From the sequence record MT682706.1: a DNA stretch of 43,757 nucleotides; one strand, given 5' to 3'. Below the pieces are notes generated by a model, which had not been told where the DNA came from, did not search any database, and saw only the letters and a list, made by a program, of their open reading frames with translations. Below are positions 9,850 through 39,039 of this stretch, piece by piece (positions within the stretch are counted from its first letter, which is position 1; each line of letters begins with the position of its first letter). Both the position numbers and the translations under genes were made by a program. This DNA comes from Escherichia phage vB_EcoS_FP.

Positions 9850-9860
9850 GGAGTTATAAC

Positions 9861-10355
9861 ATGGCAATTCGTTCCGTAGCACTGGCTGGTATGGTTTCTG
9901 ATACCTCTCTGTACAACATCGATGGCGCTTGTGTAGTTGGCGGCACAGCACCAATTCCGGCTGGCACTGTTGTTAAATTCACAACCGCTCAGTCTGTAGA
10001 TGGCCACAAGCTTGTGGAGGCGACTGGCCTCACTGCGGGTAATGCTCTCGGTGTGGTTGTTCGCTCTCATTATCAGACCCCGGATGGAACTGCTCGCGTA
10101 AATGAAGCGGTTAACGTAATGACTCACGGTAGAATCTGGGTTCGCTCAAAGCTTACTTCTGCACCAACATTTGGCCAACCAGTTAAAGTTTCTACCACTG
10201 GATTGGTTGAAGATTCAGGCACGATTGACACTGGGTGGACTTTTGCGGGTGGTTACATCAAAAACACTGGCACAGACCCGCAAGACCTTAGCGTTGATGG
10301 CGCACTAGTTGAAGTTCAGCTTACTCAATCCGCAAAATCAACTACTGCAGCTTAA
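9861..10355 (+). CDS. head decoration-like protein
   Basis: 164 aa; immediately upstream of major capsid gene; strong RBS. Confidence 0.45.
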   Translation: MAIRSVALAGMVSDTSLYNIDGACVVGGTAPIPAGTVVKFTTAQSVDGHKLVEATGLTAGNALGVVVRSHYQTPDGTARVNEAVNVMTHGRIWVRSKLTSAPTFGQPVKVSTTGLVEDSGTIDTGWTFAGGYIKNTGTDPQDLSVDGALVEVQLTQSAKSTTAA

Positions 10356-10371
10356 TAATTAAGATATATAA

Positions 10372-10397
10372 AGCCTCCTTCGGGAGGTTTTTTTACA
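10372..10397 (+). terminator. intrinsic terminator followed by sigma70-like promoter (TTGCGT, 16 nt, TATAAT)
   Basis: AAGCCTCCTTCGGGAGGTTTTTTT. Confidence 0.7.
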
Positions 10398-10466
10398 CCA
10401 TTGCGTGGGTTAAAAACTCGTGTATAATGAATCCGTAGACACATAACTGAAAAGGAACAATAAAGA

Positions 10467-11411
10467 ATGGCCATTAAATTTGACGCAGAACAAGCAAAAA
10501 TCACTGCTCACCTCGAGCAAATGGGCGTAGAAAAAGCTGATGCCGCTGGTATCTGGACCGTTAGCCAGCTTACCGCTGCTCTGAACCGTGCTTACGAAAA
10601 AGAATACGCAGAAAACTCAGTTGTTAATATCTTCCCTGTAACAAATGAAATTCCTGGTCACGCGAAGTATTTCGAATACCCAGAATTTGATGGTGTTGGC
10701 ATTGCTCAGATTATCGCTGATTACTCTGACGACTTGCCGCTGGTTGATGCGTTTATGAACGAGAAACAAGGCAAAGTGTTCCGTTTCGGTAACGCATTCC
10801 TGATTTCTATTGATGAAATTAAAGCTGGCGCCGCAACTGGTCAGTCTCTGTCGACTCGCAAACAGGCACTAGCTTTCGAAGCGCACGACAACCTGCTGGA
10901 TAAACTGGTGTGGTCTGGTTCCACTCCGCACGGCATCCGTAGCGTATTCGACCACCCGAACATCAACAACGTTGTTGCCACTCCAAACTGGGGTATCGCG
11001 GACAACGCGATTAGTGATATCACTGCGATGATTGATGCGGTTGAGAGATCAACCCAGGGCCTACATCATGTAACTGACATTCTGCTTCCAGCTTCCGCTC
11101 GTCGAGTGATGCAGGAACTGTTTCCGCAGACAAACCTAAGTTACGGCGAATTGTTCACTCGTAACAATCCGGGTCTGACCATTCGCTTTATGCAGTTCCT
11201 GGACAACTACGATGGCGCAGGTGGCAAGGCTGCTCTGGCGTTTGAAAAGAATCCACTCAATATGTCTATTGAGATTCCAGAAGCTACTAACGTACTTCCT
11301 GGGCAACCTAAGGACTTGCACTTTAAGTACCCTGTAACATCAAAAGCGACGGGTTTGATTGTTTATCGCCCCCTGACGATGGCTGCAATCAAAGGCATCA
11401 CCTTCTTGTGA
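10467..11411 (+). CDS. major capsid protein
   Basis: 314 aa; own strong promoter and terminator; position in head module. Confidence 0.8.
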   Translation: MAIKFDAEQAKITAHLEQMGVEKADAAGIWTVSQLTAALNRAYEKEYAENSVVNIFPVTNEIPGHAKYFEYPEFDGVGIAQIIADYSDDLPLVDAFMNEKQGKVFRFGNAFLISIDEIKAGAATGQSLSTRKQALAFEAHDNLLDKLVWSGSTPHGIRSVFDHPNINNVVATPNWGIADNAISDITAMIDAVERSTQGLHHVTDILLPASARRVMQELFPQTNLSYGELFTRNNPGLTIRFMQFLDNYDGAGGKAALAFEKNPLNMSIEIPEATNVLPGQPKDLHFKYPVTSKATGLIVYRPLTMAAIKGITFL

Positions 11412-11416
11412 TAAAT

Positions 11417-11442
11417 CGCCCTCTTCGGAGGGCTTTTTTTTT
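11417..11442 (+). terminator. intrinsic terminator
   Basis: CGCCCTCTTCGGAGGGC plus T9. Confidence 0.75.
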
Positions 11443-11506
11443 ACGTCTGTACCAAATGGGATTGTTGGGTTATAATCACTCAATCAGATAAACAAAGGAG
11501 ACAAAA

Positions 11507-11752
11507 ATGATTCGTTTAGAACACACTGGCGCTTGCCTTATCGTTTACAAGGGTGAGAAATATTTGCCTGGTGACACTTTCGAGGTTGATGAAATTTGCG
11601 ACGGACTAAAGCGTTTAATCGCAGAGGGTAAACTCACTATTGAAGGTGACGCTAAAGCAACCAAGCAAATCGCGCAAGAAATTGTTAGCAAGAAAAAGCG
11701 CAAAGAACCGAAGACCATCTCCGAAGCTGAGACTGGTAACGAGTACAAATAA
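11507..11752 (+). CDS. small hypothetical head-module protein (81 aa), own transcription unit
   Basis: Flanked by terminators; RBS AAGGAG. Confidence 0.6.
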   Translation: MIRLEHTGACLIVYKGEKYLPGDTFEVDEICDGLKRLIAEGKLTIEGDAKATKQIAQEIVSKKKRKEPKTISEAETGNEYK

Positions 11753-11757
11753 CAAAC

Positions 11758-11780
11758 AGGGCGCTTCGGCGTCCTTTATT
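11758..11780 (+). terminator. intrinsic terminator
   Basis: AGGGCGCTTCGGCGTCCTTTATT. Confidence 0.55.
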
Positions 11781-12195
11781 GTATGGAGCTAATATGAATG
11801 ATGCAATTTTGGCGTTTATGCGCTCTCTTGTTCCTGCGCTTAAAGCGGTGGATGACGAAGCAATTAATGTATGGATTGATTTGGCACGTCTATATGTATG
11901 CGAAAGCAAGTTTGGAGCAGACAAAGATAAGGCTATTGGCCTTTGCGCGCTGCACCTAATGCTTGCTGATGGCGCGTTTAAGGGCGAGAATGAGGGCCTG
12001 GAAACATACAGCCGTAGAATGGCAAGTTACGCGCTGAGCGGTGAATTCTCTATCACCTATGATAACCAATCAGCAATCCAAGGTGATTTATCATCTTCCT
12101 CATGGGGCCGTATGTACAAGGCGCTTCTTCGCAAGAAAGGTGGCGGCTTTGGATTGATTACTTCCGCTGGTGGCGGTGGGTGCGGTTGCCGATGA
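11779..12195 (+). CDS. head-tail connector/adaptor protein
   Basis: 138 aa; position; Gly-rich C-terminus. Confidence 0.5.
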   Translation: MYGANMNDAILAFMRSLVPALKAVDDEAINVWIDLARLYVCESKFGADKDKAIGLCALHLMLADGAFKGENEGLETYSRRMASYALSGEFSITYDNQSAIQGDLSSSSWGRMYKALLRKKGGGFGLITSAGGGGCGCR

Positions 12196-15135: not shown

Positions 15136-18114
15136 ATGGCAACAAATGAATTAGCCGGAATCACACTAGCCGTAGACGTCTCGCAGGTAGACAGGGGAAC
15201 GCAATCCCTACAAAAGTTCAGGCAGGCAAACCAGCAGGCTGCTTCCGGTATTAGTGAGTTCGTCAACGCTGAACAGGTCGCTAAAAACCAGGCTAGAGAT
15301 ACCGCTCGCGCACTGGCTGAACAGCAAGCATCTTTAGCTAAATTGCAAACAGCTATTGATCCAACTGCGGCAAAGTTCCGAAAGCTGCAAGAGGCTGCTG
15401 TAGGTCTTGACAAGGCTTTCGCGGCTGGAGTAGTTCCTGATGAGGAGTTTTTCCGCTTAGGTGAAGCCCTTGAAACGCAGAGCGCAAAACTTGCTCGTTC
15501 ACGTGCGGCGCTAACTGAAGAGGGAAGGGCGGCAGCTCAAGCCGCAAAGGATAAGGCAAAGGCAAAGGCTGAAGCTGATAGGTTCATTGCGTCACTTGAG
15601 CGACAGGCTCAAGCGGCAACATTGACGCGTGAGGAGTACTTAAAATTACAGGCTGCCCAGCTTGGGGTGAGCTCTCAGGCAGCACCTATTATTGACAGAA
15701 TCGCCGATGCATCACAGAAGGCAAACACCCAGCTAATTGCTCAGAGTAAGGCTTTTCAGAAATCAGGATTAAGCGCAGGTCAATACAAGAACGCAATTTC
15801 TCAGCTGCCAGCGCAGATTACTGATATTGGCACGTCTCTTGCTGGCGGCATTCCGATTTGGCTTATTGCAATTCAGCAGGGTGGGCAGATCAAGGATGCA
15901 TTTGGCGGTATTGGTAACACCTTTAGATTCGCGCTTGCTGCTTTAAACCCATTCAACGTAGCAGTTGGGGTTCTCGGTGGCGCTCTTATTGCTTTAGGTG
16001 TCGGTGCAGCTCAGGCTGAAAGTGAATTCAGAGCATTAAACTCTGCCATTGCATTCTCCAACAACTCCACAATCGCATCAATCTCGCAGGTTAGAGATTT
16101 GGTTAGCTCCGTTTCTGATGCTACTGGTGCAACCAGAGGACTTGTGACTAGCATCGCAACAAGCCTTATTGAGCAAGGGAACCTTACGCTGACGCAGATT
16201 GACAAGATTACCAAATCAACCGCCAGATGGGCGCAGTTGACAGGTAAGGATGCGAAGGAGATTACTGGTTACTATAACCAGATTGCGAGCGACCCAATTC
16301 AAGGACTTGCTGATTTAGACAAGAGGTTTAACTTCCTTACACAGGGGCAGTTAACAACAATTGAAAGATTGAGAGAGACTAGGGGTGAGGTTGAAGCTGT
16401 TACCGCCGCGATTGATATTTTCAGCAAGTCACAGGAAGCTAACCTTAACGACATAGCTGCGCAGTTAACCCCACTTGAGTTGGCCTGGAATGATTTTAGA
16501 AAGTACATCTCTGATATCTGGGATGCAATTAGTCGTAGAACGGTTGGGGCGCTGAACTTGTTTGTTGACGTAATAGCAGGAACAATTGAGCAAATCAGGG
16601 TCTTCCTTAACAGCGGTGACGTGCTGATTGGTGAATTCGTAATTAGCTCAATTCAGGCGTTGCAGAACATACCTGGTCTTGATGGTGTCGGTGATGACGT
16701 TATCAAGGCTCAGCGTGAGATTATCGATGCAGCTAAGAAGAATAACCTTGAACTAGAAAAGTCTATCAGGGAGCGAGACGCTAGAATAAGAAAAGGAGAA
16801 ATGGGTTACGTTACTAGCAGAGAAAATCAGAATACCAATGAGCAGCCAGGCACGGATGAGGAGTTTGCAAAGAGGAAGAAGGCGCTTCAGGATGAGCTTG
16901 ACGCGATTAAGAAGAACAGGAAAGAGGAAAATGGGAGGGTTAAGGAGCAAAGGGATTTAACAATAGGTTATGAATCTGGCGTTCTGGCACTTCAGGCTCA
17001 ACTCAAAGTTCTTCAGGAAAACAGGGATATTGGCGCAGTAATAAGCAACGAGCGCAAGCAGTACCTTCAGGAGGAAGCAAATTTCAGGATTCTTGAGCAG
17101 AGGCAAATTGATGGATCAATAACCAAAGAGCAGGGCAGGCTTCTTATTGAGAAAGATAAGGTTCTTCAACTGGCCAGACAGAAGGCCGAATTGGGTGACC
17201 AGATTGTTTTGCAGGAACGAGCCAATAAGTTGGCTGAAGTTAACCGCAAAAAGATTCTTCAGATTAACAATGAAGCGAGTAACATTGACTTGGGTGCTGG
17301 GTTATCATCTCGTGAGCAGCAAAGAGCTAAGGAGATTCAGGCTCTTAAGTCCAATCAGGTCAATGCTGGTGGCTCTCTTGATGATGTTGATTTTCAGCGG
17401 TTGCTGGAAGCAAGAAAGGAATACTACAAGCAGGAGGATAATCTTAGGTCAGACTGGCAATCAGGTGTAACATCCACTCTCGCCGACTTGACAGAGAAAT
17501 ATACAGACTACAATCAGATAGCTAAGGATTTAACCGTTGCGGCATTCGACGGGATCACAGAGCAAATCACCAACCTTGTAACCACTGGTGAGACCAATTT
17601 TAGGGAGTTCACATCAAACATCCTCAAAATGATTGCGAAGATTGCAACTCAGTTACTTTTGGTTAAGGCCATCGAATCAACATTGACTAGCTTTGGTGGT
17701 GGTGGAGGTAATGCGTTTGGCTCTTTTGCGTCTGCTATAGGTTTCTCCGGTGGCGGTTACACTGGTGACGGCGGTAAGTACCAGCCAGCAGGCACTGTGC
17801 ACCGTGGTGAGTTTGTATTCACAAAAGAAGCTACAAGCCGAATCGGTGTGAAAAACCTTTACGCGCTAATGAAGGGGTATGCAAACGGCGGCGCTGTAGG
17901 TGGTCCATCTGGTTATGCAAATGGCGGCTTGGTTTCTGGTGGTGCGGATGTTAATGTTAGCGGCATCACCGTTAACGTGAGCTCTGGTGTTGGTAGCGAC
18001 CCAGAGCAAGCTAAGGCGCTGCAAAGCGGAGTCAAGGCTATCGTAGCGGAAGAGATTGCGCAGTCTTTCCAGCAGGGCGGCAGGGCGTATCAGTACCTGC
18101 GCGGATTCAACTAA
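15136..18114 (+). CDS. tail tape measure protein
   Basis: 992 aa; coiled-coil-rich N-terminal half; Gly-rich C-terminal region; position. Confidence 0.9.
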   Translation: MATNELAGITLAVDVSQVDRGTQSLQKFRQANQQAASGISEFVNAEQVAKNQARDTARALAEQQASLAKLQTAIDPTAAKFRKLQEAAVGLDKAFAAGVVPDEEFFRLGEALETQSAKLARSRAALTEEGRAAAQAAKDKAKAKAEADRFIASLERQAQAATLTREEYLKLQAAQLGVSSQAAPIIDRIADASQKANTQLIAQSKAFQKSGLSAGQYKNAISQLPAQITDIGTSLAGGIPIWLIAIQQGGQIKDAFGGIGNTFRFALAALNPFNVAVGVLGGALIALGVGAAQAESEFRALNSAIAFSNNSTIASISQVRDLVSSVSDATGATRGLVTSIATSLIEQGNLTLTQIDKITKSTARWAQLTGKDAKEITGYYNQIASDPIQGLADLDKRFNFLTQGQLTTIERLRETRGEVEAVTAAIDIFSKSQEANLNDIAAQLTPLELAWNDFRKYISDIWDAISRRTVGALNLFVDVIAGTIEQIRVFLNSGDVLIGEFVISSIQALQNIPGLDGVGDDVIKAQREIIDAAKKNNLELEKSIRERDARIRKGEMGYVTSRENQNTNEQPGTDEEFAKRKKALQDELDAIKKNRKEENGRVKEQRDLTIGYESGVLALQAQLKVLQENRDIGAVISNERKQYLQEEANFRILEQRQIDGSITKEQGRLLIEKDKVLQLARQKAELGDQIVLQERANKLAEVNRKKILQINNEASNIDLGAGLSSREQQRAKEIQALKSNQVNAGGSLDDVDFQRLLEARKEYYKQEDNLRSDWQSGVTSTLADLTEKYTDYNQIAKDLTVAAFDGITEQITNLVTTGETNFREFTSNILKMIAKIATQLLLVKAIESTLTSFGGGGGNAFGSFASAIGFSGGGYTGDGGKYQPAGTVHRGEFVFTKEATSRIGVKNLYALMKGYANGGAVGGPSGYANGGLVSGGADVNVSGITVNVSSGVGSDPEQAKALQSGVKAIVAEEIAQSFQQGGRAYQYLRGFN

Positions 18115-18144
18115 TTAACGGGGCTTCGGCCCCTAAGGATTTTT

Positions 18145-18495
18145 ATGGCTATCGATACTTTTAACTGGTGCACTCAGATACAGGGTGGATCAGCTTCATT
18201 CAGTAATACGAACAACGTGAGAATTGTTAGCTTTGGCAATGGTTTTGAGCAAAGAGGCACGGGCGGTTATCGCAGCAACAAGCGTAGCTACCAGATGACT
18301 TACACCAACAAGGACTGGCGAGATGTTATGGATTTTTGCTTCAATCACATTATTACTCCATTCTTCTGGACCACACCGCAGGGTGACACATCAATGTTTG
18401 TGATTCAGCAGGATAGCATTAGTGTTACACCGCTCAGTAAGGAAGTTCAGACTGTAAGCATGCAATTCGTAGAAGTATTTAGTTCAATGCGTTAA
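18145..18495 (+). CDS. minor tail protein (lambda M-like)
   Basis: 116 aa; position right after tape measure. Confidence 0.75.
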   Translation: MAIDTFNWCTQIQGGSASFSNTNNVRIVSFGNGFEQRGTGGYRSNKRSYQMTYTNKDWRDVMDFCFNHIITPFFWTTPQGDTSMFVIQQDSISVTPLSKEVQTVSMQFVEVFSSMR

Positions 18496-18498
18496 ACT

Positions 18499-18524
18499 AA
18501 GCCCCTATGCGGGGCTTTTTTATT
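18499..18524 (+). terminator. intrinsic terminator-like hairpin
   Basis: AAGCCCCTATGCGGGGCTTTTTTATT. Confidence 0.5.
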
Positions 18525-18534
18525 GGAGAAATAT

Positions 18535-19290
18535 ATGCTAAGTCCAAAGTTTGAAAATCAGTTGCAAAGTCTTTTCCCTGGCGAGATTGTGACACTAATC
18601 CAGGTTGACGGAACCTCCTTCGGAAGTCTCGTTTACAACTTCCACAATGAGAACATTTCATACACGCCAGAAGAGATTATGCTGTCCCAGATGAATGGCG
18701 AGCCACTACCAGAGAAAACCATCACCTTTCGCGGTGAAGAGTATGGTCCTAGACCTTTCGGTATCTCTGGCATCAATATGACTTCTGACGGCAAAGCCAA
18801 CAAAGTAACACTAACAGTATCAAACGTAGACCAGCGTATTAGCGCACTTATCCGTACTTACAATGGATTGGTTAAGGCTAAGGTTACAATCTGGATCACC
18901 ACGCGGGATAACATCAATGAAGACGGAAGCATTGCTGATGGTGATTATCGCAGATTCGTTTACTTCATTGAGCGACCGAAGCAGGTTGATTACAAAACTG
19001 CGTCATTTGAGCTGAGTAGCCCGATGGATATGGATGGCATTTATATCCCCGCAAGACTTGTTCAGTCTGTTTGCTATTGGGCTTCTAGGGGCTGGTATCG
19101 TAGCGGTAATGGGTGTGCTTATGCTGGAAATAGATACTTTAATAAGGATGATGAGCCAGTGGCAGATCCTTCATTAGACTTCTGTGCAGGAACTGTTAAC
19201 AGTTGCAAACTTAGATTTGGTGAGAATAATCAGTTAGATTTCGGCGGATGCGCGGCAGCAAGCCTTCAAGCTAAAGCCAACCAGAGTTAA
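18535..19290 (+). CDS. minor tail protein (lambda L-like)
   Basis: C-terminal cysteine cluster C..C..C..C; RBS GGAGAA; position. Confidence 0.75.
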   Translation: MLSPKFENQLQSLFPGEIVTLIQVDGTSFGSLVYNFHNENISYTPEEIMLSQMNGEPLPEKTITFRGEEYGPRPFGISGINMTSDGKANKVTLTVSNVDQRISALIRTYNGLVKAKVTIWITTRDNINEDGSIADGDYRRFVYFIERPKQVDYKTASFELSSPMDMDGIYIPARLVQSVCYWASRGWYRSGNGCAYAGNRYFNKDDEPVADPSLDFCAGTVNSCKLRFGENNQLDFGGCAAASLQAKANQS

Positions 19291-19300
19291 GGGGGAACAA

Positions 19301-20059
19301 ATGCTTACACCAAAAATTAAACTTGAAATCTTCCAGCACGCAAAAGAAGCTTACCCGCATGAGTGCTGTGGAGTTGTAACTCAGAAGGGCCGAGCCCAGA
19401 AGTATCACAGAATCACCAATGCAAGCAAAGACCCTGAGAATGAATTTATCCTTGACTCAGGTGAGTATGCGAGTGTCGCCTTTAACCTGGCTGATAATGA
19501 ATCTATTGTTTACGTAGTTCACTCTCACACAGGCGACGGAGCAACAACAAGACCTAGCCCAGCGGATATTTGCAGCTGCAACGAGTGCGAGATTCCTTAT
19601 GTTATCGTCAGCATTCCGGAGGGAGATATGCGCATCCTTGAGCCATCATCTATGTCACTGATTGGTCGCCCGTGGGGGCTTGGTAGCTTTGATTGCTGGG
19701 GGCTTGTGATGGAATTCCACAAGAAATACGGAGTAAAACTGAATGACTACCGAGTTAATTACCCGTGGTGGGAGAAGCGGTACAATGAAAATATCTATGA
19801 CGACAACTGGATTAAGGAAGGATTTGAGCTGGTAAAAACTTCAGATATTCCTATTGGCTCAATGATTATGATGCAGGTGCAAAGTGAAGTGACAAACCAC
19901 GCCGGAATCTACATTGGCAACAACAGATTCATTCATCACCTTTATGGTAAAATGAGTTCAGTTGATATCTACTCCGATTACTGGCGAGAGCGCACTGTGC
20001 GAATCGTTCGCCATAAGGATTTACCAGAGGATGTAATTTATGACACAGAAACTTATTGA
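19301..20059 (+). CDS. tail assembly protein K-like (JAMM/MPN + NlpC/P60)
   Basis: HECCGVV and HSHT motifs; 252 aa; position. Confidence 0.8.
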   Translation: MLTPKIKLEIFQHAKEAYPHECCGVVTQKGRAQKYHRITNASKDPENEFILDSGEYASVAFNLADNESIVYVVHSHTGDGATTRPSPADICSCNECEIPYVIVSIPEGDMRILEPSSMSLIGRPWGLGSFDCWGLVMEFHKKYGVKLNDYRVNYPWWEKRYNENIYDDNWIKEGFELVKTSDIPIGSMIMMQVQSEVTNHAGIYIGNNRFIHHLYGKMSSVDIYSDYWRERTVRIVRHKDLPEDVIYDTETY

Positions 20060-20612
20060 TATTAAGCTGGGGCTTTCCTTGGGCCGTAAGTTTGGAAAGA
20101 TTCACCAAATGGCAGTGAGTAGTGTGCCCGAGGCTATGCGAGCACTTTGCTCACAGATTCCAGCATTCAAAGAATTCATGAACAGTCATGTCGGTCAGAA
20201 CACAAGATACGCCGTGTTCGTTGATGGCAAAAATGTGAATGAGCATAGGATTGCTGATTTTAGTGCCGTTCAGGAGATACGCATCTTACCAATCCCTCAA
20301 GGCCGTAAGTCTGGCGGGCTTTTTCAGACTATTTTAGGCGCCGCTCTTATCACGGTTGGCATCTTTACCGGGCAGATTTATCTTGTTGGCGCTGGTGTTT
20401 CTCTGGCTGCTGGCGGTATTGCTCAATTACTCTCGCCGCAAGCGACTGGATTAAAGACCCAGAGCAACAAAACAAGCAACCGCGCCTCTTACGCATTCGG
20501 CTCGGCTGTGAACACTGTAGCTGCTGGTTATCCAGTATGCCTTCCATATGGCTACCGAACGGTTGGCGGTTCTGTGTTTAGTGCAGGCAGTTATTCCGAA
20601 GACATTGCTTAA
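20040..20612 (+). CDS. tail assembly protein I-like
   Basis: 190 aa; hydrophobic Gly-rich C-terminal segment; overlaps K; position. Confidence 0.7.
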   Translation: MTQKLIDIKLGLSLGRKFGKIHQMAVSSVPEAMRALCSQIPAFKEFMNSHVGQNTRYAVFVDGKNVNEHRIADFSAVQEIRILPIPQGRKSGGLFQTILGAALITVGIFTGQIYLVGAGVSLAAGGIAQLLSPQATGLKTQSNKTSNRASYAFGSAVNTVAAGYPVCLPYGYRTVGGSVFSAGSYSEDIA

Positions 20613-20619
20613 ATATCAT

Positions 20620-20645
20620 ACCCGCCTAGTGCGGGTTTTTTATTT
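20620..20645 (+). terminator. intrinsic terminator-like hairpin
   Basis: ACCCGCCTAGTGCGGGTTTTTTATTT. Confidence 0.5.
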
Positions 20646-20692
20646 AGTGTAGAATGTTACAAATGATCAAAACAAACATGAGGCTTTGTGAT

Positions 20693-23600
20693 ATGGCTGA
20701 AGATATTAAGATTTATGGTGCTAAGGGTGGTAGTCAGAAGCCGCATCAACCGGTGGAGCAGGAAGATAACCTCATTTCACTAAACAAGGTTAAGGTGTTG
20801 CTTGCTGTCGCTGACGGAGAGGTTGATTCAAACTTCTCAATGAAGGATTTATACCTTGCTGACGTTCCGGTGCAAAACCAGGATGGTAGCTACAACTACG
20901 AAGGTGTTCGCGCTGAGTTCCGCTCTGGTACGCAGTATCAGGATTACATCGCTGGGCTTGACGGTGCTAACTCAGAGATTCAGGCTTCCAGAGAAATCAC
21001 GAACGATACCCCATACATCATTGCGGTTAACAATACTCAGCTATCAGCGATTCGTGTAAAGCTATATTGGCCTAGACTGGTTAAGCAAGAAAGCAATGGA
21101 GACCTGAACGGAACAACCTGCGAATATGCAATTGATCTTTCTGTTAATGGTGGCGCTTATCAGGAATATACTCGAGGAGTTGCTAACGGGAAGACAACTA
21201 CAGGTTACGACCGCAGCATTCGTGTAAACCTTCCAGCTGAATTTGATAGCGCATTGGTTCGCATCCGTAAGATTACAGCAGATTCGACGAGTAGCACATT
21301 GGTTAACGGGATGCAGATTACAACCTATCAGGAGGTAATCGACGCTAAATTCCGCTATCCGCTTACAGCTCTTGTTTACGTTGAGTTTGGCTCTGACCTT
21401 TTTCCTAACGGTATCCCGACAATATCTATCAAGAAGCGATGGAAGTTGATTCAGGTTCCTACAAACTACGACCCTGAAACAAGAACTTACAGTGGCACAT
21501 GGAATGGTCTATTTAAAATGGCATGGTCAAATAACCCTGCATGGGTTCTTTATGACTTAGTGACAAACCGCCGCTACGGTCTTGATCAGAGAGAGCTGGG
21601 TGTAGAGATTGATAAGTGGGGTCTGTACGAAGCTGCGCAATTCTGTGACCAAATGGTTCCAGATGGAAAAGGCGGCATGGAGCCGCGCTACCTGTGCGAT
21701 ATGGTTGTGCAGAATAAAGTTGAGGCTTACACGCTAATTCGTGATATCTGTTCGATCTTCCGTGGCCTGACTTTCTATGATGGCGAAAAGATTGGTATCG
21801 TAGTTGATAAGCCTCGTAATCCATCTTACATCTTCACGAATGATAACGTTGTAAACGGATTGTTCAGCCGCACCTTTGCCAGTGATAAAAGCCTTTACAC
21901 CACGGCAAACGTTCAGTTTGATGATGTTGAGAACAACTATCAGCAGGATGTTGAACCAGTATTCGAATTAGAGGCAACTCGTCGTTTTGGATTTAACCCT
22001 GTAGATTTAACTGCGATTGGATGTACTCGCAGAAGTGAAGCAAACAGACGTGGCAGATGGCTCCTGAAAACCAACCTAAGAAGCGAAACTATTAGCTTCA
22101 CCACTGGGTTGGAGGGCATGATTCCGATGATTGGCGAGGTGATTGCGGTCAATGACGCGGCATGGTCTAGCAACTATCAGCTAAACCTTTCCGGTCGTAT
22201 TGAATCAGTTCAGGGGTTGCAGGTTTTCACCCCATTTAAAGTTGACGCAGCGCCTGGTGACAGAATTCTCCTGAACAAGCCTGACGGAAGTCCAGAAGCG
22301 AGAACTATTGCAAGCGTATCTGATGATGGTAGAACAATAAACCTTAACACTGCGTTCAGCTTTGTAGCCCAGCCTGATACTGTATTCGCAATTGATAAGG
22401 ATAACCTCGCGCTTCAACAATATGTTGTGACAGGGATTCAAAAAGCAGATTCTGACGGTTCGGATTCATTCCAGTACACAATTACTGCTGTAGAGTATGA
22501 CCCGAACAAGTATGACGAGATTGACTACGGCGTTAACATTACTGACCGTCCTACTTCAATTGTGGAACCTGACAGATTGTCTCCACCTGATAACTTAACA
22601 GTATCAAGCTACAGCAAGGTTGTTCAGGGTTTATCGGTTGAGACGATGGTAATTGGTTGGGATAAAGCGCCATACGCTAAAACATACAATGTTCAGTGGA
22701 GGAAAGAGAATGGCAACTGGATTAACGTACCAAGAACAGCTAGTACAGAGGTTGATATCGAAGGTATTTACGCAGGAATCTATGACGTTAGGGTTCGCAG
22801 CGTATCAGATACTGAAAACGTGTCTGCCTGGTCTGACATTGTAACGGTATCACTAACTGGCAAGATTGGCCGCCCATCTGCGCCTACTGCTATCACGGCA
22901 TCAACTGATGAAGTATTTGGTATTCGTGTTAAATGGGGATTCCCTGATGGATCCGGTGATACTGCTTACACTGAACTTCAGCAGGTTCCTGATAATGGCG
23001 ATGGTACTTACAATCCTGATAACGCAAGTTTGCTTACGCTGCTGCCTTATCCAGCCTATGAATACTGGCATACTCCAATTCAGCCAGGTAAGGTTATCTG
23101 GTATCGCGCAAGATTGATTGACAGAATAGGTAATACGTCTGATTGGTCTAGTTTCGCAAGAGGCATGAGTACTGACGACGCAAACATTATCAATGATTAC
23201 ATCAAGGTTGATATTGAAGGCTCGGAAGGATTCAAATACCTCGAGCAGAATGCGATTCAAAAGAATCAGGACATTCAGAACCAGGCAGAATCAATCCTTG
23301 AGAACGCATTAGCTAATGACACTGATGTTCGTCGCATGACTAAGGAGAACGGCAAGCGTAAGGCTGAATATGTTCAGGCAGTGAATCTCATAGCTGATGA
23401 AACTCAGGCGCGCGTAGAGGCTCTCACAGCCCTTAAAGCACAGATAGATGATGAAGTTGTAGCGTCGATTACAGAAGTTCAGACTGCATTAGCCACAGAG
23501 ACAGAAGCAAGAACTACTGCAGACACGGCTCTATCAGCAAGACTTGGAGAAAACGAGGCAGCTCTAAACCAGAAGTTAGACGCATTCTCTAATGCCACAT

Positions 23601-32559: not shown

Positions 32560-32612
32560 AAGGCACTATACATAATGCACAGTGCCATTGTTTATCAATT
32601 CGTGCTATTTCC
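32560..32612 (-). promoter_or_regulatory. phage-specific promoter-like module (minus strand)
   Basis: Minus strand: AAATAGCACGAATTGATAAA, 22 nt, TATAGTGCC. Confidence 0.5.
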
Positions 32613-33087
32613 CTTGCTCTTTAGCTTTTCGTGCTGCCTCGTTAGCGGCCTTAATCTTGCGCCATGATCGACACTCTGGCTTCGTGGCTAACTCAGCCTC
32701 AGTGACCACACGCAGCATGTGACGTTTTTTGCAACGTAGTGTAAGTGGCTTTCCGTTGCCATCGAATTGCAAATCTGGTCGGCAGAATGTAGCGCGAAAG
32801 CCTTCTCCATTTCGTTTGTAGTAGTTGTGCGACAACTGAGCACCGCGTGCAGAAATCATACCACGCTTAAACCATTCTTCCACGGCCTGTGGTGTTACCT
32901 TTAATTTCTTTGCCATATTTGCCTTTGTGCCGAAGAAATCAAGAACAATTTCCAGCCGCGCACGTAAACCCGCCCTTACCTCATCTTTCAAAACGTAGTA
33001 ACCTGAAGGTCGTTTTCGCTGCTTTTTATCTTCAGTGCGGATGGTTCCGTTATTGCCGTTAATGGTTCTCTTGTCGACTGTATTCAT
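32605..33087 (-). CDS. HTH DNA-binding protein (Cro/YdaS-like), basic
   Basis: HTH block AKKLKVTPQAVEEWFKRGMISARGA; ATG 33087 with GAGGTAATAAG RBS. Confidence 0.55.
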   Translation of the reverse strand: MNTVDKRTINGNNGTIRTEDKKQRKRPSGYYVLKDEVRAGLRARLEIVLDFFGTKANMAKKLKVTPQAVEEWFKRGMISARGAQLSHNYYKRNGEGFRATFCRPDLQFDGNGKPLTLRCKKRHMLRVVTEAELATKPECRSWRKIKAANEAARKAKEQGK

Positions 33088-33098
33088 CTTATTACCTC

Positions 33099-33146
33099 GA
33101 TAGCATTTTTTGTTAAAAGTCATCCTGATTTGATGGTAATATTGTA
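33099..33146 (+). promoter_or_regulatory. phage-specific promoter-like module (variant) for helicase operon
   Basis: GATAGCATTTTTTGTTAAAAG, 22 nt, TAATATTGTAC; divergent from HTH gene. Confidence 0.45.
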
Positions 33147-33188: not shown

Positions 33189-35183
33189 ATGTTGCCTATC
33201 GAGAAGCTGGTTGCCAACTTTGATAAAGAAAGAATTAAACAGATTCAGAAAGACTATCAGTTTGGAGAGATAACCCCTTACGAATTCCAGTGCGTTACAT
33301 TTGACGCAATTGGGAAGGCTATTGGCAAGTACGAAGCGCCATTTATCGCAGACCTTTCCGTATCGGCTGGTAAGACAATCATTCTCGCTATGATTGGTAA
33401 GCGTATGGAGCAGCTTGGCCTTCCTTATATGGTGCTTTCTCGCCAGTCAGAGATAATCAGCCAGAACTCAGAAGAGCTTCGCAATTTTGGCATCCGTAAT
33501 AGCGTCTATTGCTCCGGGCTTAACGTTAAATCAGTTTATTACCCAACCATAGTTGCCAGTGAGGGCACGGCAGCTAACGGCTTATTTAAGGGGCTTGGTG
33601 ACTATGTTCCGGCTGTTATCGCAATCGATGAATGTCACATGGTCGATCACATGGATATCGTGGAAGCTGAAGAGAACGAAGAAACATTTGAACAAATGAG
33701 CACAAAGAAAGGCGAGATGGTTTTTAAGGATGGCGTTAATACTGGATTGCTTGGTACTGGTCGTGCGCAGTACACGCTAATAATCACTGAGATGAAGCGT
33801 CGCTGCCGTGAAAAATACGGGCGGGAGCTTCGTATATTCGGCCTTACTGGTAGCCCTTATCGAAACAATGATCGTATCGTCGTTAGCAATCCAAATATCC
33901 GTGGGTTCTGGCGAAAAACTGTGATTCAGGTTCCAACAAATTACCTTGTTGATTTGGGATTCGTGGTTCCAACTGTTTACGGCGAGGTTGGTGACCTTGG
34001 TTATGACCTTAGCGAATTTGCGCCTGATGGAAGCGATGGGGTTAAGGATTTTAGCAAAAAAGAAATGGATGCAATGGCTGCAAAGATTCACGACAACCAA
34101 TCCATGACTCAAAAGATAATGGGTTTTGTTGTAAAAATACTAGAGACCCGCAACGCAGCATTGGTTACTTGTGCTGGTAAGCTCCATTGTGATGAGGCCG
34201 CTGCGGCACTGCCAGATAGATACCCTTACGCTATCATTACTGATTCTACGGGGGAGAAGAAGCGCAGGGAGATTCTTGCTGATTGCCAGACAGGGAAGTA
34301 CAAAATCATATTCCAGATTGGTTGTCTAACCACGGGCGTGTCGGTTCCACCGTGGGATACAAGCGTGATACTTAGAAAGATCGGCAGCCTTACACTAATG
34401 ATCCAGTTGCTTGGTCGGGGTATGCGAATTCTAAAGAAAAAGCATATAGAAATGGGGATGAAAAAAGATGATCACCTTGTTCTGGACTTCGCTGGCGCAC
34501 TTGATGACATGGCAGAGCTTTACTTTGACCCAATAATTGAGGAGCTTCAGGCTGAGAAGTTTAAATCCTCAAGAAAAGGTGGTGATGAGGTTCGCCAGTG
34601 TCCGCAATGTGGATATGAGAACTCGCCATTTGCTAGACGCTGTAGCAATAAGATTGATGGTGTTAGATGCGATCACTTTTTCCAGTTCACAACATGTGAT
34701 GATATTACCGACCAACAAACAAAGGCGGTAATCAAGAAAGGTTGTGGAACTAAAAATGACATAGCAGCAAAAGTTTGTCGTGAATGCGGAGAAATTCTTA
34801 AAGACCCAAACGCTAACCTGACTGGAAAGATGTATCGTCGCGGAGACTATTTGCGAGTTTATGATTTTCAAGTTGGTTTAAGCAAGAATCAAACGGGCAT
34901 TGTAGTTAAGTACAATATCATGGCCCACAACGGAGAAAGATTTAACGCTTGGGAGTTCTTCAATCCAGAATCTGACCATAGGGTTTGTAGTGTGCTTTGG
35001 AAAAACTTTTGCCTTGCTCACATTGAAAATCGCGCTGAAGCAGCACGAATTGGCAGACTGAAGAATGCCAGAATGATTATGACTAACGCAGATAAGTTTC
35101 GTGCGCCAGTCCAGGTGACACACCGCAAGAATGGCAAAGGAAAGGATATAATAGCTTTTAAGAATTTTGGAGAATTGTTATGA
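33189..35183 (+). CDS. SF2 DEAD/DExH-family helicase with C-terminal zinc-ribbon motifs
   Basis: Walker A SAGKT, motif II DECH, CPQCG...C..C zinc-binding motifs. Confidence 0.85.
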   Translation: MLPIEKLVANFDKERIKQIQKDYQFGEITPYEFQCVTFDAIGKAIGKYEAPFIADLSVSAGKTIILAMIGKRMEQLGLPYMVLSRQSEIISQNSEELRNFGIRNSVYCSGLNVKSVYYPTIVASEGTAANGLFKGLGDYVPAVIAIDECHMVDHMDIVEAEENEETFEQMSTKKGEMVFKDGVNTGLLGTGRAQYTLIITEMKRRCREKYGRELRIFGLTGSPYRNNDRIVVSNPNIRGFWRKTVIQVPTNYLVDLGFVVPTVYGEVGDLGYDLSEFAPDGSDGVKDFSKKEMDAMAAKIHDNQSMTQKIMGFVVKILETRNAALVTCAGKLHCDEAAAALPDRYPYAIITDSTGEKKRREILADCQTGKYKIIFQIGCLTTGVSVPPWDTSVILRKIGSLTLMIQLLGRGMRILKKKHIEMGMKKDDHLVLDFAGALDDMAELYFDPIIEELQAEKFKSSRKGGDEVRQCPQCGYENSPFARRCSNKIDGVRCDHFFQFTTCDDITDQQTKAVIKKGCGTKNDIAAKVCRECGEILKDPNANLTGKMYRRGDYLRVYDFQVGLSKNQTGIVVKYNIMAHNGERFNAWEFFNPESDHRVCSVLWKNFCLAHIENRAEAARIGRLKNARMIMTNADKFRAPVQVTHRKNGKGKDIIAFKNFGELL

Positions 35184-35599
35184 ACATTACAGACAAAGTT
35201 GATTACATTGAGTTTTACTCTGGACCGGTTAAGTCGTGTCCGAAAGAGGATGACGAACAAATCTTTTGCTCTGATTGGGTTAAGTATAACTACCCAGATA
35301 TGGTATTTTTCCACTGCGTGAATGAGGGAAAGAAAACCATTGGTCAAGCAAGAAAGGACCAGGCTAAAGGTTTGCTTAAAGGGGTTTCTGACTGCTTATT
35401 CCTGATACCTGAATCTCTGCGTGGCAAATACCCTTTCGGAGCCATAGAGCTAAAGAGAGCAGGAAAAACCCAGGCAAGTCCAGTCAGCAATGAACAGAAG
35501 TCCTTCCTGAAAAGCGTGAGAGAATCAGGGGGTTTCGCTGCCGTGGCTTACGGACGAGAAGGTTTTCTTGCAGCATTCAAAGAAATGATTTCAAAATAG
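35180..35599 (+). CDS. VRR-NUC domain nuclease
   Basis: 139 aa; AIELKRAGKTQAS...Q.KS block; ATGA overlap with helicase. Confidence 0.6.
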   Translation: MNITDKVDYIEFYSGPVKSCPKEDDEQIFCSDWVKYNYPDMVFFHCVNEGKKTIGQARKDQAKGLLKGVSDCLFLIPESLRGKYPFGAIELKRAGKTQASPVSNEQKSFLKSVRESGGFAAVAYGREGFLAAFKEMISK

Positions 35600-35645
35600 C
35601 ACGAATTGCTAAAGAGATTTCGCAGGGATGCGATATAGTTACTCC
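35595..35645 (+). promoter_or_regulatory. phage-specific promoter-like module
   Basis: AATAGCACGAATTGCTAAAG, 22 nt, TATAGTTACTCCATCGAAACGAAACG. Confidence 0.55.
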
Positions 35646-35675
35646 ATCGAAACGAAACGCAGAGGGAGAAACAAA

Positions 35676-35876
35676 ATGGCTACTATCCTTACTGGTAAAT
35701 TCTACGAATCACGCAAAACTGGTTATGAATATGAATTAGGAATTACTCCTGATTCTTATATTCTGATTGATGTTGAAGATGCAAACTATGCATTCGAAGT
35801 TAGCCCGACATTCAAAGATGATCTGGAAACTGTTAAAAACGCATTCGGCGAAAAATTTGATGAGGTATCAGAATAA
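35676..35876 (+). CDS. hypothetical protein (66 aa)
   Basis: ATG 35676 with RBS AGAGGGAGAAA. Confidence 0.5.
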   Translation: MATILTGKFYESRKTGYEYELGITPDSYILIDVEDANYAFEVSPTFKDDLETVKNAFGEKFDEVSE

Positions 35877-36097
35877 TGGCAATCTTTACATTTGAAAATC
35901 AATGGGAAGTCTTTAAGCTAATGGCAGTTGAGGAACTAAAGAAGTCTGGATTTAACAAAAACCCCTGGGACTTAGCATTTTGCCTTGATATGAGCTTTGA
36001 AGAAGATTACCTGAACACAGATGTAGAAACATGGCGTGACCGTATGGTTGCAGACATTGCAGAAATGAAAAAAGATTGCCCAGAGGATTTTGAATAA
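35876..36097 (+). CDS. hypothetical protein (73 aa)
   Basis: TAATG overlap. Confidence 0.5.
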   Translation: MAIFTFENQWEVFKLMAVEELKKSGFNKNPWDLAFCLDMSFEEDYLNTDVETWRDRMVADIAEMKKDCPEDFE

Positions 36098-36222
36098 TGA
36101 AAATAGTAGACAAAGAGATGTTTGAAATTGCGCAATCTTACGCAAATGACGCAGTTAAAACCGGATCAGAATATTGCTGGATGTGTGCTAAAGAATACCT
36201 GAAAATGGCTTACGGATTATGA
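36097..36222 (+). CDS. small hypothetical protein (41 aa)
   Basis: TAATG overlap upstream, ATGA overlap downstream. Confidence 0.35.
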   Translation: MKIVDKEMFEIAQSYANDAVKTGSEYCWMCAKEYLKMAYGL

Positions 36223-36467
36223 TAGTTGAAACCGGACGCGCCGCAGTATGGGCGCACTGTGGAGAAGCGGGTTTGCAGGATGACATTAAGAAGATCTCCA
36301 GCTTCTTTGACATAAAAGATATCAGCGTTGTCTTTAATGGTAAATTCTCTTACATGGATGAGCGACCAAGAAAATACGTAAGAGTTAAACCAGGGGTTAG
36401 AATTGATGTTAACGAGTTCCTTAAATCTGAGGGATTCAAGTTTAAGATAACGAAGCCTAAGGATTAA
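36219..36467 (+). CDS. hypothetical protein (82 aa)
   Basis: ORF track. Confidence 0.5.
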   Translation: MIVETGRAAVWAHCGEAGLQDDIKKISSFFDIKDISVVFNGKFSYMDERPRKYVRVKPGVRIDVNEFLKSEGFKFKITKPKD

Positions 36468-36469
36468 GT

Positions 36470-36721
36470 ATGTTGGGTTTAGATTTTCAGCCAGAGCATT
36501 ACGATTTAGTATATGGGCAAAGTGGAGCTAAGTTTAGGGCGATACCTATTGCTGACTGGTTCCCTCCTGATTATGCGGATGTGAATGCAAAAACTAAAGA
36601 CGGTAAGTGGGTACAGATTTACTACTCTCCAGCATGCGGAAACCTTTGCATGACTGACCTTGACCAGAAGTTAACAATTAGTGCTGATTTGATTGACTGC
36701 TGGTTAAAAGAAGTTGAATGA
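36470..36721 (+). CDS. hypothetical protein (83 aa)
   Basis: ORF track. Confidence 0.5.
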   Translation: MLGLDFQPEHYDLVYGQSGAKFRAIPIADWFPPDYADVNAKTKDGKWVQIYYSPACGNLCMTDLDQKLTISADLIDCWLKEVE

Positions 36722-36804
36722 GAGCCCTAATACTAGTAGCATTAGTCCCAATGTTTAGCTTTACTATCTTATACTTTATCGCAATGAATTAAGGAACTTA
36801 TATA

Positions 36805-37935
36805 ATGGCAACTGCAAAAATCACTAACGAACAACTACGCGAAGAACTGGCTAATGGCATGACCAACAAGGCAATCGCAGAGAAATACGGAATGAACATT
36901 CGCAACGTTGAATTGCGTCGTAGTAAATTAGCGAAGAGCGGGGAATTGCACGGCAACCCAGGCATCAAGAAGCTAGTTCCTGAAGGTTATATGGTTAAAG
37001 GCACATCAACGATGATTGATGCCGAAGGTAACGAAAAGATTCGTTGGGTTAAAACATCCGTAGATAATGAGCGCCTTGAGGTTTTAATGGAGAAAGCTAG
37101 AGATGCATTCTGCTCTGATTTGCCAAAGGCAGATGTGGTCAACCACTCAGGAAATGAAGTTAACTCTGAATTAATGACTCTTTACCCGATTTTCGATATC
37201 CATATCGGCATGATGGCACATCGTCATGAATCTGGTGAGAATTATGACACGAAAACGGCAGAGAAATTAATGGGATCATATTTTGACCATGCAATTTCTG
37301 TATCTCCAGCCTCAGAGAAAGCAGTAATTTTAGTTGGCGGCGACTTCCTTCACTCAGACGGACTTGAGGCTGTAACCCCAGCAAGCGGACACTGCCTTGA
37401 TCAAGATAGCCGATATGCTAAGTTAGTTTATGTGGCAATTCGCTCAATTCGTGGCGCGGTAGAGAAGATGCTTAAGAAACACAAGGAAGTAGAGATTCAA
37501 ATCATAGAGGGAAATCACGACCAGAGTGGTATGATTTGGCTCCGTGCGGCAATGGCTGCATTTTATGAAAACGAGAATCGCGTGTTTGTTGATACCAGTC
37601 CGGCAATCATGCACAAGACGCGATTTGGTTCAACATTACTTGGTTACACGCACGGCCACACAATGAAGAAAGCTGAGGGTCGACTCGCGGCAATGGCGAC
37701 AGACTACCGCAAAGACTTTGGTGAATGTGAATTCGTTTACTGCCATTCCGGCCATTTCCATCATGCAACCGTTACAGAATGCACTCTTGGGATTGATGAG
37801 GTGCACCCTGCACTTGCCAGCAAGGACGCATATGCAGCACGGGGAGGGTGGCGATCATACCGACAGGCTGCTGCAATTGTTTACCACAAGAATTTTGGCG
37901 AGGTTGGTAGACACATTTATCGCCCTGGTATGTAA
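36805..37935 (+). CDS. HTH domain fused to calcineurin-like metallophosphoesterase
   Basis: N-terminal HTH-like segment; phosphoesterase motifs DIHIG, GGDFLHSDG, EGNHDQ. Confidence 0.55.
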   Translation: MATAKITNEQLREELANGMTNKAIAEKYGMNIRNVELRRSKLAKSGELHGNPGIKKLVPEGYMVKGTSTMIDAEGNEKIRWVKTSVDNERLEVLMEKARDAFCSDLPKADVVNHSGNEVNSELMTLYPIFDIHIGMMAHRHESGENYDTKTAEKLMGSYFDHAISVSPASEKAVILVGGDFLHSDGLEAVTPASGHCLDQDSRYAKLVYVAIRSIRGAVEKMLKKHKEVEIQIIEGNHDQSGMIWLRAAMAAFYENENRVFVDTSPAIMHKTRFGSTLLGYTHGHTMKKAEGRLAAMATDYRKDFGECEFVYCHSGHFHHATVTECTLGIDEVHPALASKDAYAARGGWRSYRQAAAIVYHKNFGEVGRHIYRPGM

Positions 37936-38008
37936 ATAGCACTTTTGTTAATAAAGCCTCAAAGGATTGAGGCAAAATGAATAAACGATAAAGAGATGAG
38001 GAATTGTA

Positions 38009-38482
38009 ATGATTTACGTATTTGATATCGATGGAACTATAGCTAATAATGAGCATAGAAGTCACCTCTTGCCATCCAGCGACCTTCACTTGACTTCAAG
38101 TTGGAAGGATTACAATAAAGCCTGTTCTGGAGACTCACCAATAATTCCAATGATAAAAATGATGAATGCTTTAGCTGAGTCATCTCAAGTTTACATAATG
38201 ACCTCAAGAAGTGATGAAGTTGAATGGAGAACCCTTGAGTGGCTTCAGGATAATGATGTTGAGTATGATTCGATATACATGAGAAGTCGACATGACAACC
38301 GAAAAGATTACAAAATAAAAGAGGAATGGCTCAATGAAATCAGTGGTGGCTATAAAGGCAATGTGGTTATTTTTGAAGATAACCCAAAAGTAATTAAGCA
38401 CCTAAGAAGTCGCGGATACACAGTTATGGCTGTATGTGAATATGAAGAACTACCTAAAGATTGCGAATCTCACGGAGAATGA
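38009..38482 (+). CDS. HAD-superfamily phosphatase (5' nucleotidase / PNK-phosphatase-like)
   Basis: N-terminal DxDGT motif (VFDIDGTIA); 157 aa. Confidence 0.6.
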   Translation: MIYVFDIDGTIANNEHRSHLLPSSDLHLTSSWKDYNKACSGDSPIIPMIKMMNALAESSQVYIMTSRSDEVEWRTLEWLQDNDVEYDSIYMRSRHDNRKDYKIKEEWLNEISGGYKGNVVIFEDNPKVIKHLRSRGYTVMAVCEYEELPKDCESHGE

Positions 38483-39039
38483 AAATGACTAAATTATTTA
38501 TCCTTAACGGACCGGCTGGAGTTGGCAAGGACACTATCGCAGATGTTATGCTCGAGTTGGGTGTTGTTGATGGGAAAGTTTCATTCAAGTCACCAATGTT
38601 CGATGTAGCCAGGGGGATGCTATCAAAGGATGAATTTGATTGGTTTATTGAGAACTACAACAACCGAGACGAGAAAGAAAAGCATCAAGAGATACTTGGC
38701 GGTAAAAGCATTCGAGAATTTATGATTTGGATTAGCGAGTCTGTAATGAAGCCAGTCTTTGGTGATTATGTTTTCGGTAAAAGGCTAGCCCAGTCACTTG
38801 GTGATGGTTGCTACATTTGCGCTGACGGTGGGTTTGCTAGCGAGATTAAGCCACTGATCGACACTGGTGTTGAGGTCACGTTAATCAGATTGCATAGGGC
38901 AGGGTACAAATTTGATGGCGATAGTCGCTCATACATTCATGGGGTGTGCGCAAGAGAAATTGATGTTCGTGTTGTTGATGGTGATATTGATGGAACATCA
39001 GCATTGGTAAGGCACGTAATAAATAGCACGAATTGCTAA
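38479..39039 (+). CDS. P-loop kinase (dNMP kinase-like)
   Basis: Walker A GPAGVGKDT; ATG 38479 with ACGGAG RBS; runs through a promoter motif, ending NSTNC. Confidence 0.6.
   Translation: MKMTKLFILNGPAGVGKDTIADVMLELGVVDGKVSFKSPMFDVARGMLSKDEFDWFIENYNNRDEKEKHQEILGGKSIREFMIWISESVMKPVFGDYVFGKRLAQSLGDGCYICADGGFASEIKPLIDTGVEVTLIRLHRAGYKFDGDSRSYIHGVCAREIDVRVVDGDIDGTSALVRHVINSTNC

Follow-up and report, generated by a model that had tools for sequence, protein, structure and literature searches.

What does a phage protein do that joins an N-terminal helix-turn-helix (HTH) to a calcineurin-like metallophosphoesterase? The question is raised by one gene of Escherichia phage vB_EcoS_FP, a T1-like siphophage akin to ACG-M12 and PCEc3, whose complete 43,757-bp genome (MT682706.1) is the window analysed here. 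An earlier note, made from the sequence by eye, had drawn attention to the fusion and considered that the protein might be a protein phosphatase that retargets transcription, an SbcD/Mre11-like nuclease, or a regulator of a palindromic promoter module. The gene and its ribosome-binding site are as follows.

36805–37935, plus strand: coding sequence of FP_0056, the HTH-metallophosphoesterase (ATG start, 376 aa; protein 100% identical; PHROG 704, E = 2.9e-152)
36791–36795, plus strand: Shine-Dalgarno sequence AAGGA, 9 nt upstream of the ATG, read off the sequence

Detection of the two domains

All three phosphoesterase motifs quoted by the earlier note are present in the open reading frame: DIHIG (aa 131–135), GGDFLHSDG (aa 178–186) and EGNHDQ (aa 235–240). 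Two more that it had not listed, THGH (H283, motif IV) and SGHFHH (H317/H319, motif V), follow downstream, and the putative HTH sequence, TNKAIAEKYGMNIRNVELRRSKLAKSG, corresponds to aa 20–46. When FP_0056 alone was searched against Pfam, the best matches to Metallophos (E = 0.05) and GerE (E = 0.053) both fell short of the curated thresholds; because Pfam thus misses both domains, the call made by eye was a genuine detection. On the contrary, the PHROG 704 profile ("DNA repair exonuclease") aligns with nearly the whole protein, matching aa 4–376 to positions 2–388 of 390. The fused architecture of HTH and metallophosphoesterase is real, far beyond chance.

Predicted structure and domain architecture

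Structure prediction, which had been suggested as a check, was carried out with AlphaFold2 using a 150-sequence alignment as input. The resulting model (mean pLDDT 93.3, pTM 0.79) contains both an HTH of the general tri-helical fold and a phosphoesterase fold, connected as follows.

36826–36939, plus strand: N-terminal three-helix HTH, aa 8–45 (helices 8–16, 21–28 and 32–45), from the AlphaFold2 model
36940–36984, plus strand: flexible linker, aa 46–60 (pLDDT 50–76, without secondary structure)
36985–37116, plus strand: beta-hairpin, aa 62–86, and helix, about aa 88–104, with the signature KGxS...G....WVKT, from conservation and the model
37162–37932, plus strand: metallophosphoesterase core, aa 120–376, from the AlphaFold2 model (pLDDT 96–99)

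The claim of an HTH in the first 60 residues or so is upheld by profile searches as well as by the predicted fold. A profile of 60 N-terminal domains from the family matched LuxR/GerE-type and sigma-region-4 HTHs in the PDB, namely RhlR (2e-6), DesR (9e-6) and CnrH (2e-5), and also FixJ and NarL. Single family members matched HTH_23, HTH_28, HTH_8, Sigma70_r4_2 (best 6e-11) and GerE (best 2e-9) in Pfam. The DNA-binding domain of LuxR/GerE proteins has four helices; the HTH of FP_0056 is modelled with three. We conclude that the HTH is probably of the LuxR, sigma-region-4 or resolvase kind and is predicted to bind DNA, helix 3 likely being the recognition helix. Of 150 diverse relatives, 145 have at least 60 residues ahead of G75 of the hairpin; the N-terminal domain thus belongs to the standard architecture of the family. 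A search of longer family members for informative domain fusions returned extra HTHs only; some carry two in tandem before the core, such as a 482-aa member (aa 21–60 and 101–142).

Conservation of the catalytic core and of the hairpin

Motif conservation was measured in FP_0056 and 149 representatives of 31–58% identity (n = 150). The five motifs that supply the binuclear metal ligands in the superfamily, DxH, GDxx(D/H), GNH(D/E), H and GHxH, were all found, together with a sixth motif specific to the family.

37195–37203, plus strand: motif I, D131-I-H133 (D131 in 149/150, H133 in 150/150)
37339–37353, plus strand: motif II, G179-D180-F-L-H183, GDxxH (G179 and D180 invariant, D180 in 150/150; H183 in 146/150)
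37375–37413, plus strand: family-specific motif T191-P-x-S-G-H-x-L198-D199-x-D201-x-R203, between motifs II and III
37510–37521, plus strand: motif III, G236-N237-H238-D239 (N237 and H238 in 149/150 each)
37651–37659, plus strand: motif IV, H283-G-H285 (H283 in 149/150)
37750–37761, plus strand: motif V, G316-H317-F-H319 (H317 in 144/150, H319 in 149/150)

Conservation at the metal-ligand positions therefore ranges from 144 to 150 of the 150 sequences (96–100%), as expected of the catalytic core proposed by the earlier note. The family-specific motif is kept nearly as well (T191 in 148 of the 150, L198 in 143, D199 in 149, D201 in 142 and R203 in 145). Motif II bears a histidine (GDxxH), as it does in Mre11; at this position protein phosphatases carry GDxxDR instead.

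The segment before the core is also under constraint: G75 and W81 are at least 90% conserved, and S68, G75 and W81 are invariant in one alignment. FP_0056 and the T1 homologue, gp16, are 66% identical overall, but aa 61–100 (36985–37104) are 95% identical against about 40–85% in the rest of the protein, making the hairpin and its helix the most constrained part in this comparison, above the catalytic core. Because 14 of the 40 codons in this segment differ synonymously, its protein identity reflects strong purifying selection and not a recent exchange of DNA. This pattern of substitution suggests that the hairpin module may contact DNA, the catalytic core or a host factor.

Size, spread and naming of the family

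A tblastn search located the family in 2,016 of 50,697 phage records, or about 4% of deposited phage genomes, with hosts including Escherichia, Klebsiella, Salmonella, Vibrio, Rhodobacter and Ruegeria. An exhaustive HMMER search (E ≤ 1e-3) yielded 4,679 clusters at 50% identity, nearly all of 370–420 aa, and 59 loci of bacterial genomes carry the family, mostly in prophage-like regions of Alpha-, Beta- and Gammaproteobacteria. As a sequence group the family is known, as PHROG 704 and as the product of T1 gene 16. Its database names are inconsistent ("DNA repair exonuclease", "phosphoesterase", "Ser/Thr phosphatase", "DNA polymerase II small subunit"), and that of PHROG 704 is an automatic annotation rather than the outcome of a functional test. 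In the literature searched we found no biochemical or genetic study of the function of the family, and no description of the HTH fusion, of the gene cassette or of the parallel with phage T5 A1 presented below.

Several records carry T1-like sequence under other names, among them Pseudomonas phage PsgS01F, Campylobacter phage A110b and others, Streptococcus phage MBBL140 and a metagenome-assembled contig labelled "Bacillota bacterium". PsgS01F matches the region of T1-like coliphages with 89.6% DNA identity, and A110b and the Bacillota contig match it with 97–98% protein identity; these records look like host mis-assignments or contamination.

The nearest folds are DNA nucleases

Although FP_0056 alone retrieved no match from the PDB by sequence, the full-length family profile gave matches to SbcD, Mre11 and Nuclease MPE. 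These were marginal only, for which reason the domains were searched separately. The phosphoesterase also has a weak sequence match to PdeM, a ligase-associated endonuclease of the DNA-damage response. At the level of structure, the top neighbours of the FP_0056 model are polynucleotide nucleases. The proposal of an SbcD/Mre11-like enzyme thus stands as regards the GDxxH motif II and the nuclease-type core, which align over 184–193 residues (about 15% identity) of chains 319–476 residues long. It fails as regards the accessory parts. Mre11 and SbcD have a C-terminal capping domain, whereas FP_0056 ends at aa 376 with the last strands of the core and has the N-terminal HTH and hairpin module instead. 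No Rad50/SbcC-like gene is annotated in the 30-kb stretch of PCEc3 or in the whole T1 genome, and where the window has open reading frames longer than 500 aa, the PCEc3 and T1 annotations show tail, tape-measure, tail-fibre, helicase and terminase genes at the matching positions. The DP1 subunit of archaeal DNA polymerase D, a 3′-5′ proofreading exonuclease, is 14% identical to FP_0056. DP1 begins with an OB domain, for which FP_0056 has no predicted helix-free segment of sufficient length, and neither a DP2 partner nor a DNA polymerase is annotated in T1-like genomes (PCEc3 stretch, T1).

The HTH-linker-hairpin-phosphoesterase architecture, the intact set of conserved residues at the positions of the metal-ligand and catalytic motifs and the nearest folds being DNA nucleases are the established facts of this locus. 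The best reading of them, in which we have moderate confidence, is that of a nuclease, tethered to DNA, that takes part in degrading DNA or in processing its ends. The three-helix HTH, the linker of about 15 residues, the hairpin-helix adaptor and the binuclear metallophosphoesterase core would make up a two-module enzyme, whose core would be a Mn2+/Mg2+-dependent DNA phosphodiesterase with exo- or endonuclease activity. Held on duplex DNA by the HTH, this enzyme would act without a partner of the Rad50/SbcC type.

A functional analogue in phage T5

The closest functional parallel comes from protein A1 of phage T5, a pre-early protein described as required for the degradation of host DNA and as sufficient to cause it, and a predicted metallo-phosphatase with structural features of double-strand-break-repair and polymerase-proofreading nucleases, whose activity as a purified nuclease is still to be demonstrated (10.64898/2026.04.02.716235). 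The structural neighbours named for A1 are those found here for FP_0056 (10.64898/2026.04.02.716235). As in FP_0056, motifs I–V are present (DIH304, NHD396, HGH476 and GHTH500 in A1) with no partner of the Rad50 type. Relatives of A1 of about 530 aa and 45–48% identity have an N-terminal HTH at aa 8–45 (HTH_23, HTH_38, HTH_7 and CENP-B_N; five proteins), whereas the N-terminus of T5 A1 itself differs, and T5 encodes a separate DNA-binding protein, A2, as well as the dNMP phosphatase Dmp in the same region.

We considered whether FP_0056 belongs to the A1 family and rejected this assignment. Profile-profile comparison with hhalign gave a probability of 14% over the full length and 29% for the phosphoesterase domain (E about 1e-3), with only motifs III–V collinear. 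A1 is longer (556 aa) and has a conserved middle domain of about 200 aa without counterpart in FP_0056, while the FP_0056 family has its own hairpin module and TPxSGHxLDxDxR motif, unlike A1. Given this weak similarity, we regard T5 A1 as a functional analogue, convergent or very distant, and not as a family member. By this analogy, FP_0056 might be the counterpart of A1 in T1-like and many other phages.

A three-gene cassette and the end-healing alternative

The phosphoesterase gene lies in a plus-strand block (35628–39039) with a copy of the promoter palindrome at either end (35595 and 39022). From the upstream palindrome to the phosphoesterase gene, no plus-strand terminator-like site was found except a weak one inside the open reading frame 35628–35876. 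Two putative partner genes follow.

38009–38482, plus strand: partner 1, PNKP-type HAD phosphatase, 157 aa (Pfam HAD_PNKP, E = 4.7e-18; PDB Pnkp1 4xrp, E = 1e-4)
38485–39039, plus strand: partner 2, dNMP-kinase-like P-loop protein (PHROG 139, E = 1.9e-41)

The start of the P-loop gene at ATG 38485 (MTKLFILNGPAGVGKD...) was assigned by homology to the PCEc3 annotation; the list of open reading frames starts it at TTG 38461, overlapping the HAD gene. A hairpin, GCCTCAAAGGATTGAGGC, lies at 37956–37973 between the phosphoesterase and HAD genes, with a T-run on the minus strand only, although every neighbouring gene is on the plus strand; after gene 16 of T1, the corresponding site is annotated as a rho-independent terminator. 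Further upstream, the region 33189–35599 encodes a 664-aa helicase (PHROG 16, DNA helicase; Pfam Helicase_C) with zinc-ribbon motifs and a tail that weakly resembles ParB_C, and a VRR-NUC nuclease (35180–35599), the two genes overlapping by 4 nt. T1 has the same pair as genes 22 and 21.

The order phosphoesterase, HAD_PNKP and P-loop is common to FP-like Drexlerviridae, to Kagunavirus and to the SP6-like podovirus Era103. In the Kagunavirus Escherichia phage G AB-2017 (9365–11923) the cassette forms an opposite-strand island among tail genes, in Era103 (18114–21316) it adjoins an ATP-dependent DNA ligase gene, and in a vibriophage of the Zobellviridae the HAD gene lies two small open reading frames downstream of the phosphoesterase. 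We sampled 80 IMG/VR loci using a 7-sequence alignment as query. The HAD gene lies 6–211 nt downstream of the phosphoesterase in 20 of them, 19 of which also have the P-loop gene, and these cassette-bearing loci, about a quarter of the sample, come from several unrelated phage families. In the remaining 60 neither gene occurs anywhere in the flanks, and in T1 the phosphoesterase is gene 16 while the phosphatase and kinase are genes 64 and 62, about 35 kb away. Present in several lineages but split in T1 and missing from most sampled loci, the linkage is therefore recurrent, mobile and facultative. Neighbours elsewhere include lysis genes, terminase and DnaB-type helicase, and often enzymes of nucleotide metabolism: thymidylate synthase, ThyX, ribonucleotide reductase and a dATP/dGTP diphosphohydrolase domain. 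PADLOC defence models matched none of the three cassette proteins.

The cassette invites a reading in which the phosphoesterase, together with the PNKP-type phosphatase and the P-loop kinase, cleans damaged ends (3′-phosphate, 2′,3′-cyclic phosphate or otherwise blocked) so that a ligase of host or phage can reseal the cuts made by host defence nucleases in DNA or RNA. Bacterial Pnkp uses a calcineurin-type phosphoesterase for end healing, and the conserved order of the three genes across unrelated lineages, the ligase that abuts them in Era103, the weak PdeM match and the resemblance of the HAD protein both to Pfam HAD_PNKP and to the phosphatase domain of Pnkp1, an RNA-repair enzyme, all fit this interpretation. 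It is harder to reconcile with the lack of a PNKP-like neighbour in most family members and with the fact that no ligase is annotated in the T1-like genomes PCEc3 and T1. Moreover, the P-loop protein groups with dNMP kinases (PHROG 139; a homologue has Pfam P-mevalo_kinase) and not with polynucleotide kinases, and an HTH is unexpected on an RNA-repair enzyme. We consider end healing possible but unlikely.

Still less probable is a small-molecule phosphoesterase that would act on dNDPs and dNTPs or on cyclic or oligonucleotide signals, tuning nucleotide pools or destroying host immune signals, with the HTH serving localization or autoregulation only. The top structural neighbours are enzymes of polynucleotides, a near-universal HTH predicted to bind DNA is hard to explain on an enzyme of soluble nucleotides, and the lack of a PADLOC match also speaks against it. 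If FP_0056 is instead a DNA-tethered nuclease, the DNA breakdown that it carries out might feed, or cooperate with, the PNKP-type 3′-phosphatase and the dNMP-kinase-like protein.

The promoter palindrome and its candidate regulators

We next consider whether the HTH could serve the promoter module of the phage. The 17-mer AATAGCACGAATTGCTA, a TAGCA-N5-TGCTA palindrome, is part of a fixed promoter module and occurs in 11 copies in the window.

1703, 2214, 3149, 25328 (minus strand), 27789, 31548, 32593 (minus strand), 35595, 39022, 42478 (minus strand) and 42912 (minus strand): start positions of the palindrome copies
35595–35611, plus strand: palindrome upstream of the three-gene block; the next copy, 39022–39038, is at the end of the P-loop gene

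Nine of the 11 copies are followed, after a spacer of exactly 22 nt, by a −10 element of the TATAGT/TATAAT type, and most of these also have a conserved CATCGAAACGA box between that element and the start codon. This puts the centre of the palindrome close to −42, where class II activators are typically located, and the genes downstream are early, replication and recombination genes. At the 31548 copy the −10 element is missing and a terminator-like hairpin comes next. A variant, AATAGCACTTTT(T)GTTA, occupies 37935–37951 (compare 1703–1719), where it overlaps the last base of the phosphoesterase stop codon and has no −10 element at the usual 22-nt spacing. The 12-mer TAGCACTTTTTG, akin to this variant, is the commonest 12-mer of the T1 genome (8 copies).

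A transcription factor whose HTH binds the palindrome and activates or shuts early promoters, the phosphoesterase being an accessory or sensor domain, would account for several of these features. It is common for HTH proteins of the LuxR type to bind, as dimers, to palindromes near −42, the spacing to the −10 element is fixed in most copies, and the gene itself lies within a block bounded by two such promoters; furthermore, contact of T5 A1 with host RNA polymerase, and a dampening of pre-early promoters by it, have been reported (10.64898/2026.04.02.716235). The distribution of the palindrome argues otherwise. T1 has 10 copies, whereas Kagunavirus G has one (chance level) and Era103 none, and a stricter pattern was found at T1-like loci only, with no occurrence in Kagunavirus-like or prophage loci. 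We regard the regulatory role raised by the earlier note as unlikely, since the palindrome is restricted to T1-like phages and the protein family extends well beyond them, to a phage, for instance, that encodes an RNA polymerase of its own. In addition, FP and T1 share an identical DNA motif although about one third of the residues of helix 3 differ between them. A Cro-like open reading frame (32605–33123, minus strand) has the matching distribution: of the 824 records that contain it, every one sampled is a T1-like genome. By this criterion of sequence distribution, the putative Cro-like protein is the better candidate regulator. Comparison of the recognition helices of both candidates between FP and T1 was uninformative, both having diverged. 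Taken together, these observations make a palindrome-binding role for FP_0056 very unlikely.

There is a similarly slim chance that the protein is a bifunctional take-over factor, the counterpart of T5 A1 in the T1 group. Its phosphoesterase would destroy host DNA while its HTH targets it to specific sites, or to RNA polymerase at the early promoters with the palindrome at −42. A single polypeptide would so link the destruction of the host genome with the protection of the phage's own and with the time at which early genes are transcribed, and the phosphatase and kinase would recycle the nucleotides. Least likely of all, and highly improbable, is a protein phosphatase resembling lambda phosphatase, specific for Ser/Thr or of dual specificity, that would act on RNA polymerase or other proteins of the host. 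The superfamily fold and metal ligands are shared, and some homologue records are named "serine/threonine protein phosphatase", but FP_0056 has GDxxH in motif II and lacks the GDxxDRG, the GNHE and the close fold similarity of lambda-phosphatase and PPP enzymes, which leaves this proposal of the earlier note unsupported.

A putative role in DNA breakdown

As a DNA-tethered nuclease, FP_0056 may contribute to infection by breaking down or trimming DNA, most likely that of the host. The recurrence of the three-gene order in separate phage groups and the frequent nucleotide enzymes nearby speak for such a role. T1 degrades host DNA, a piece of background that was not used as evidence here, and a search of the literature on host-DNA degradation by T1 and on T1 gene 2.5 found nothing relevant. 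Several observations count against this reading: the weak homology to T5 A1, the 60 of 80 loci without HAD or P-loop neighbours, the distance in T1 between gene 16 and the phosphatase and kinase genes, and the occurrence of the family in prophage-like regions, wholesale destruction of host DNA being untypical of temperate phages. The nuclease reading also gives no account of how the phage's own DNA is spared.

This family is among the more widespread phage families for which no tested function was found in the literature searched. If its members are stand-alone, DNA-tethered nucleases resembling Mre11 and DP1, they would be the likely enzymes behind the degradation of DNA, or the processing of its ends, in T1-like, Jersey-like and many marine phages, and the recent result on T5 A1 would extend to a much larger group of viruses. 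The same interpretation, if true, would define a mobile three-gene cassette of nuclease, 3′-phosphatase and kinase whose logic is nucleotide salvage or end repair, and would correct the misleading names "protein phosphatase" and "polymerase subunit" under which these proteins are recorded.
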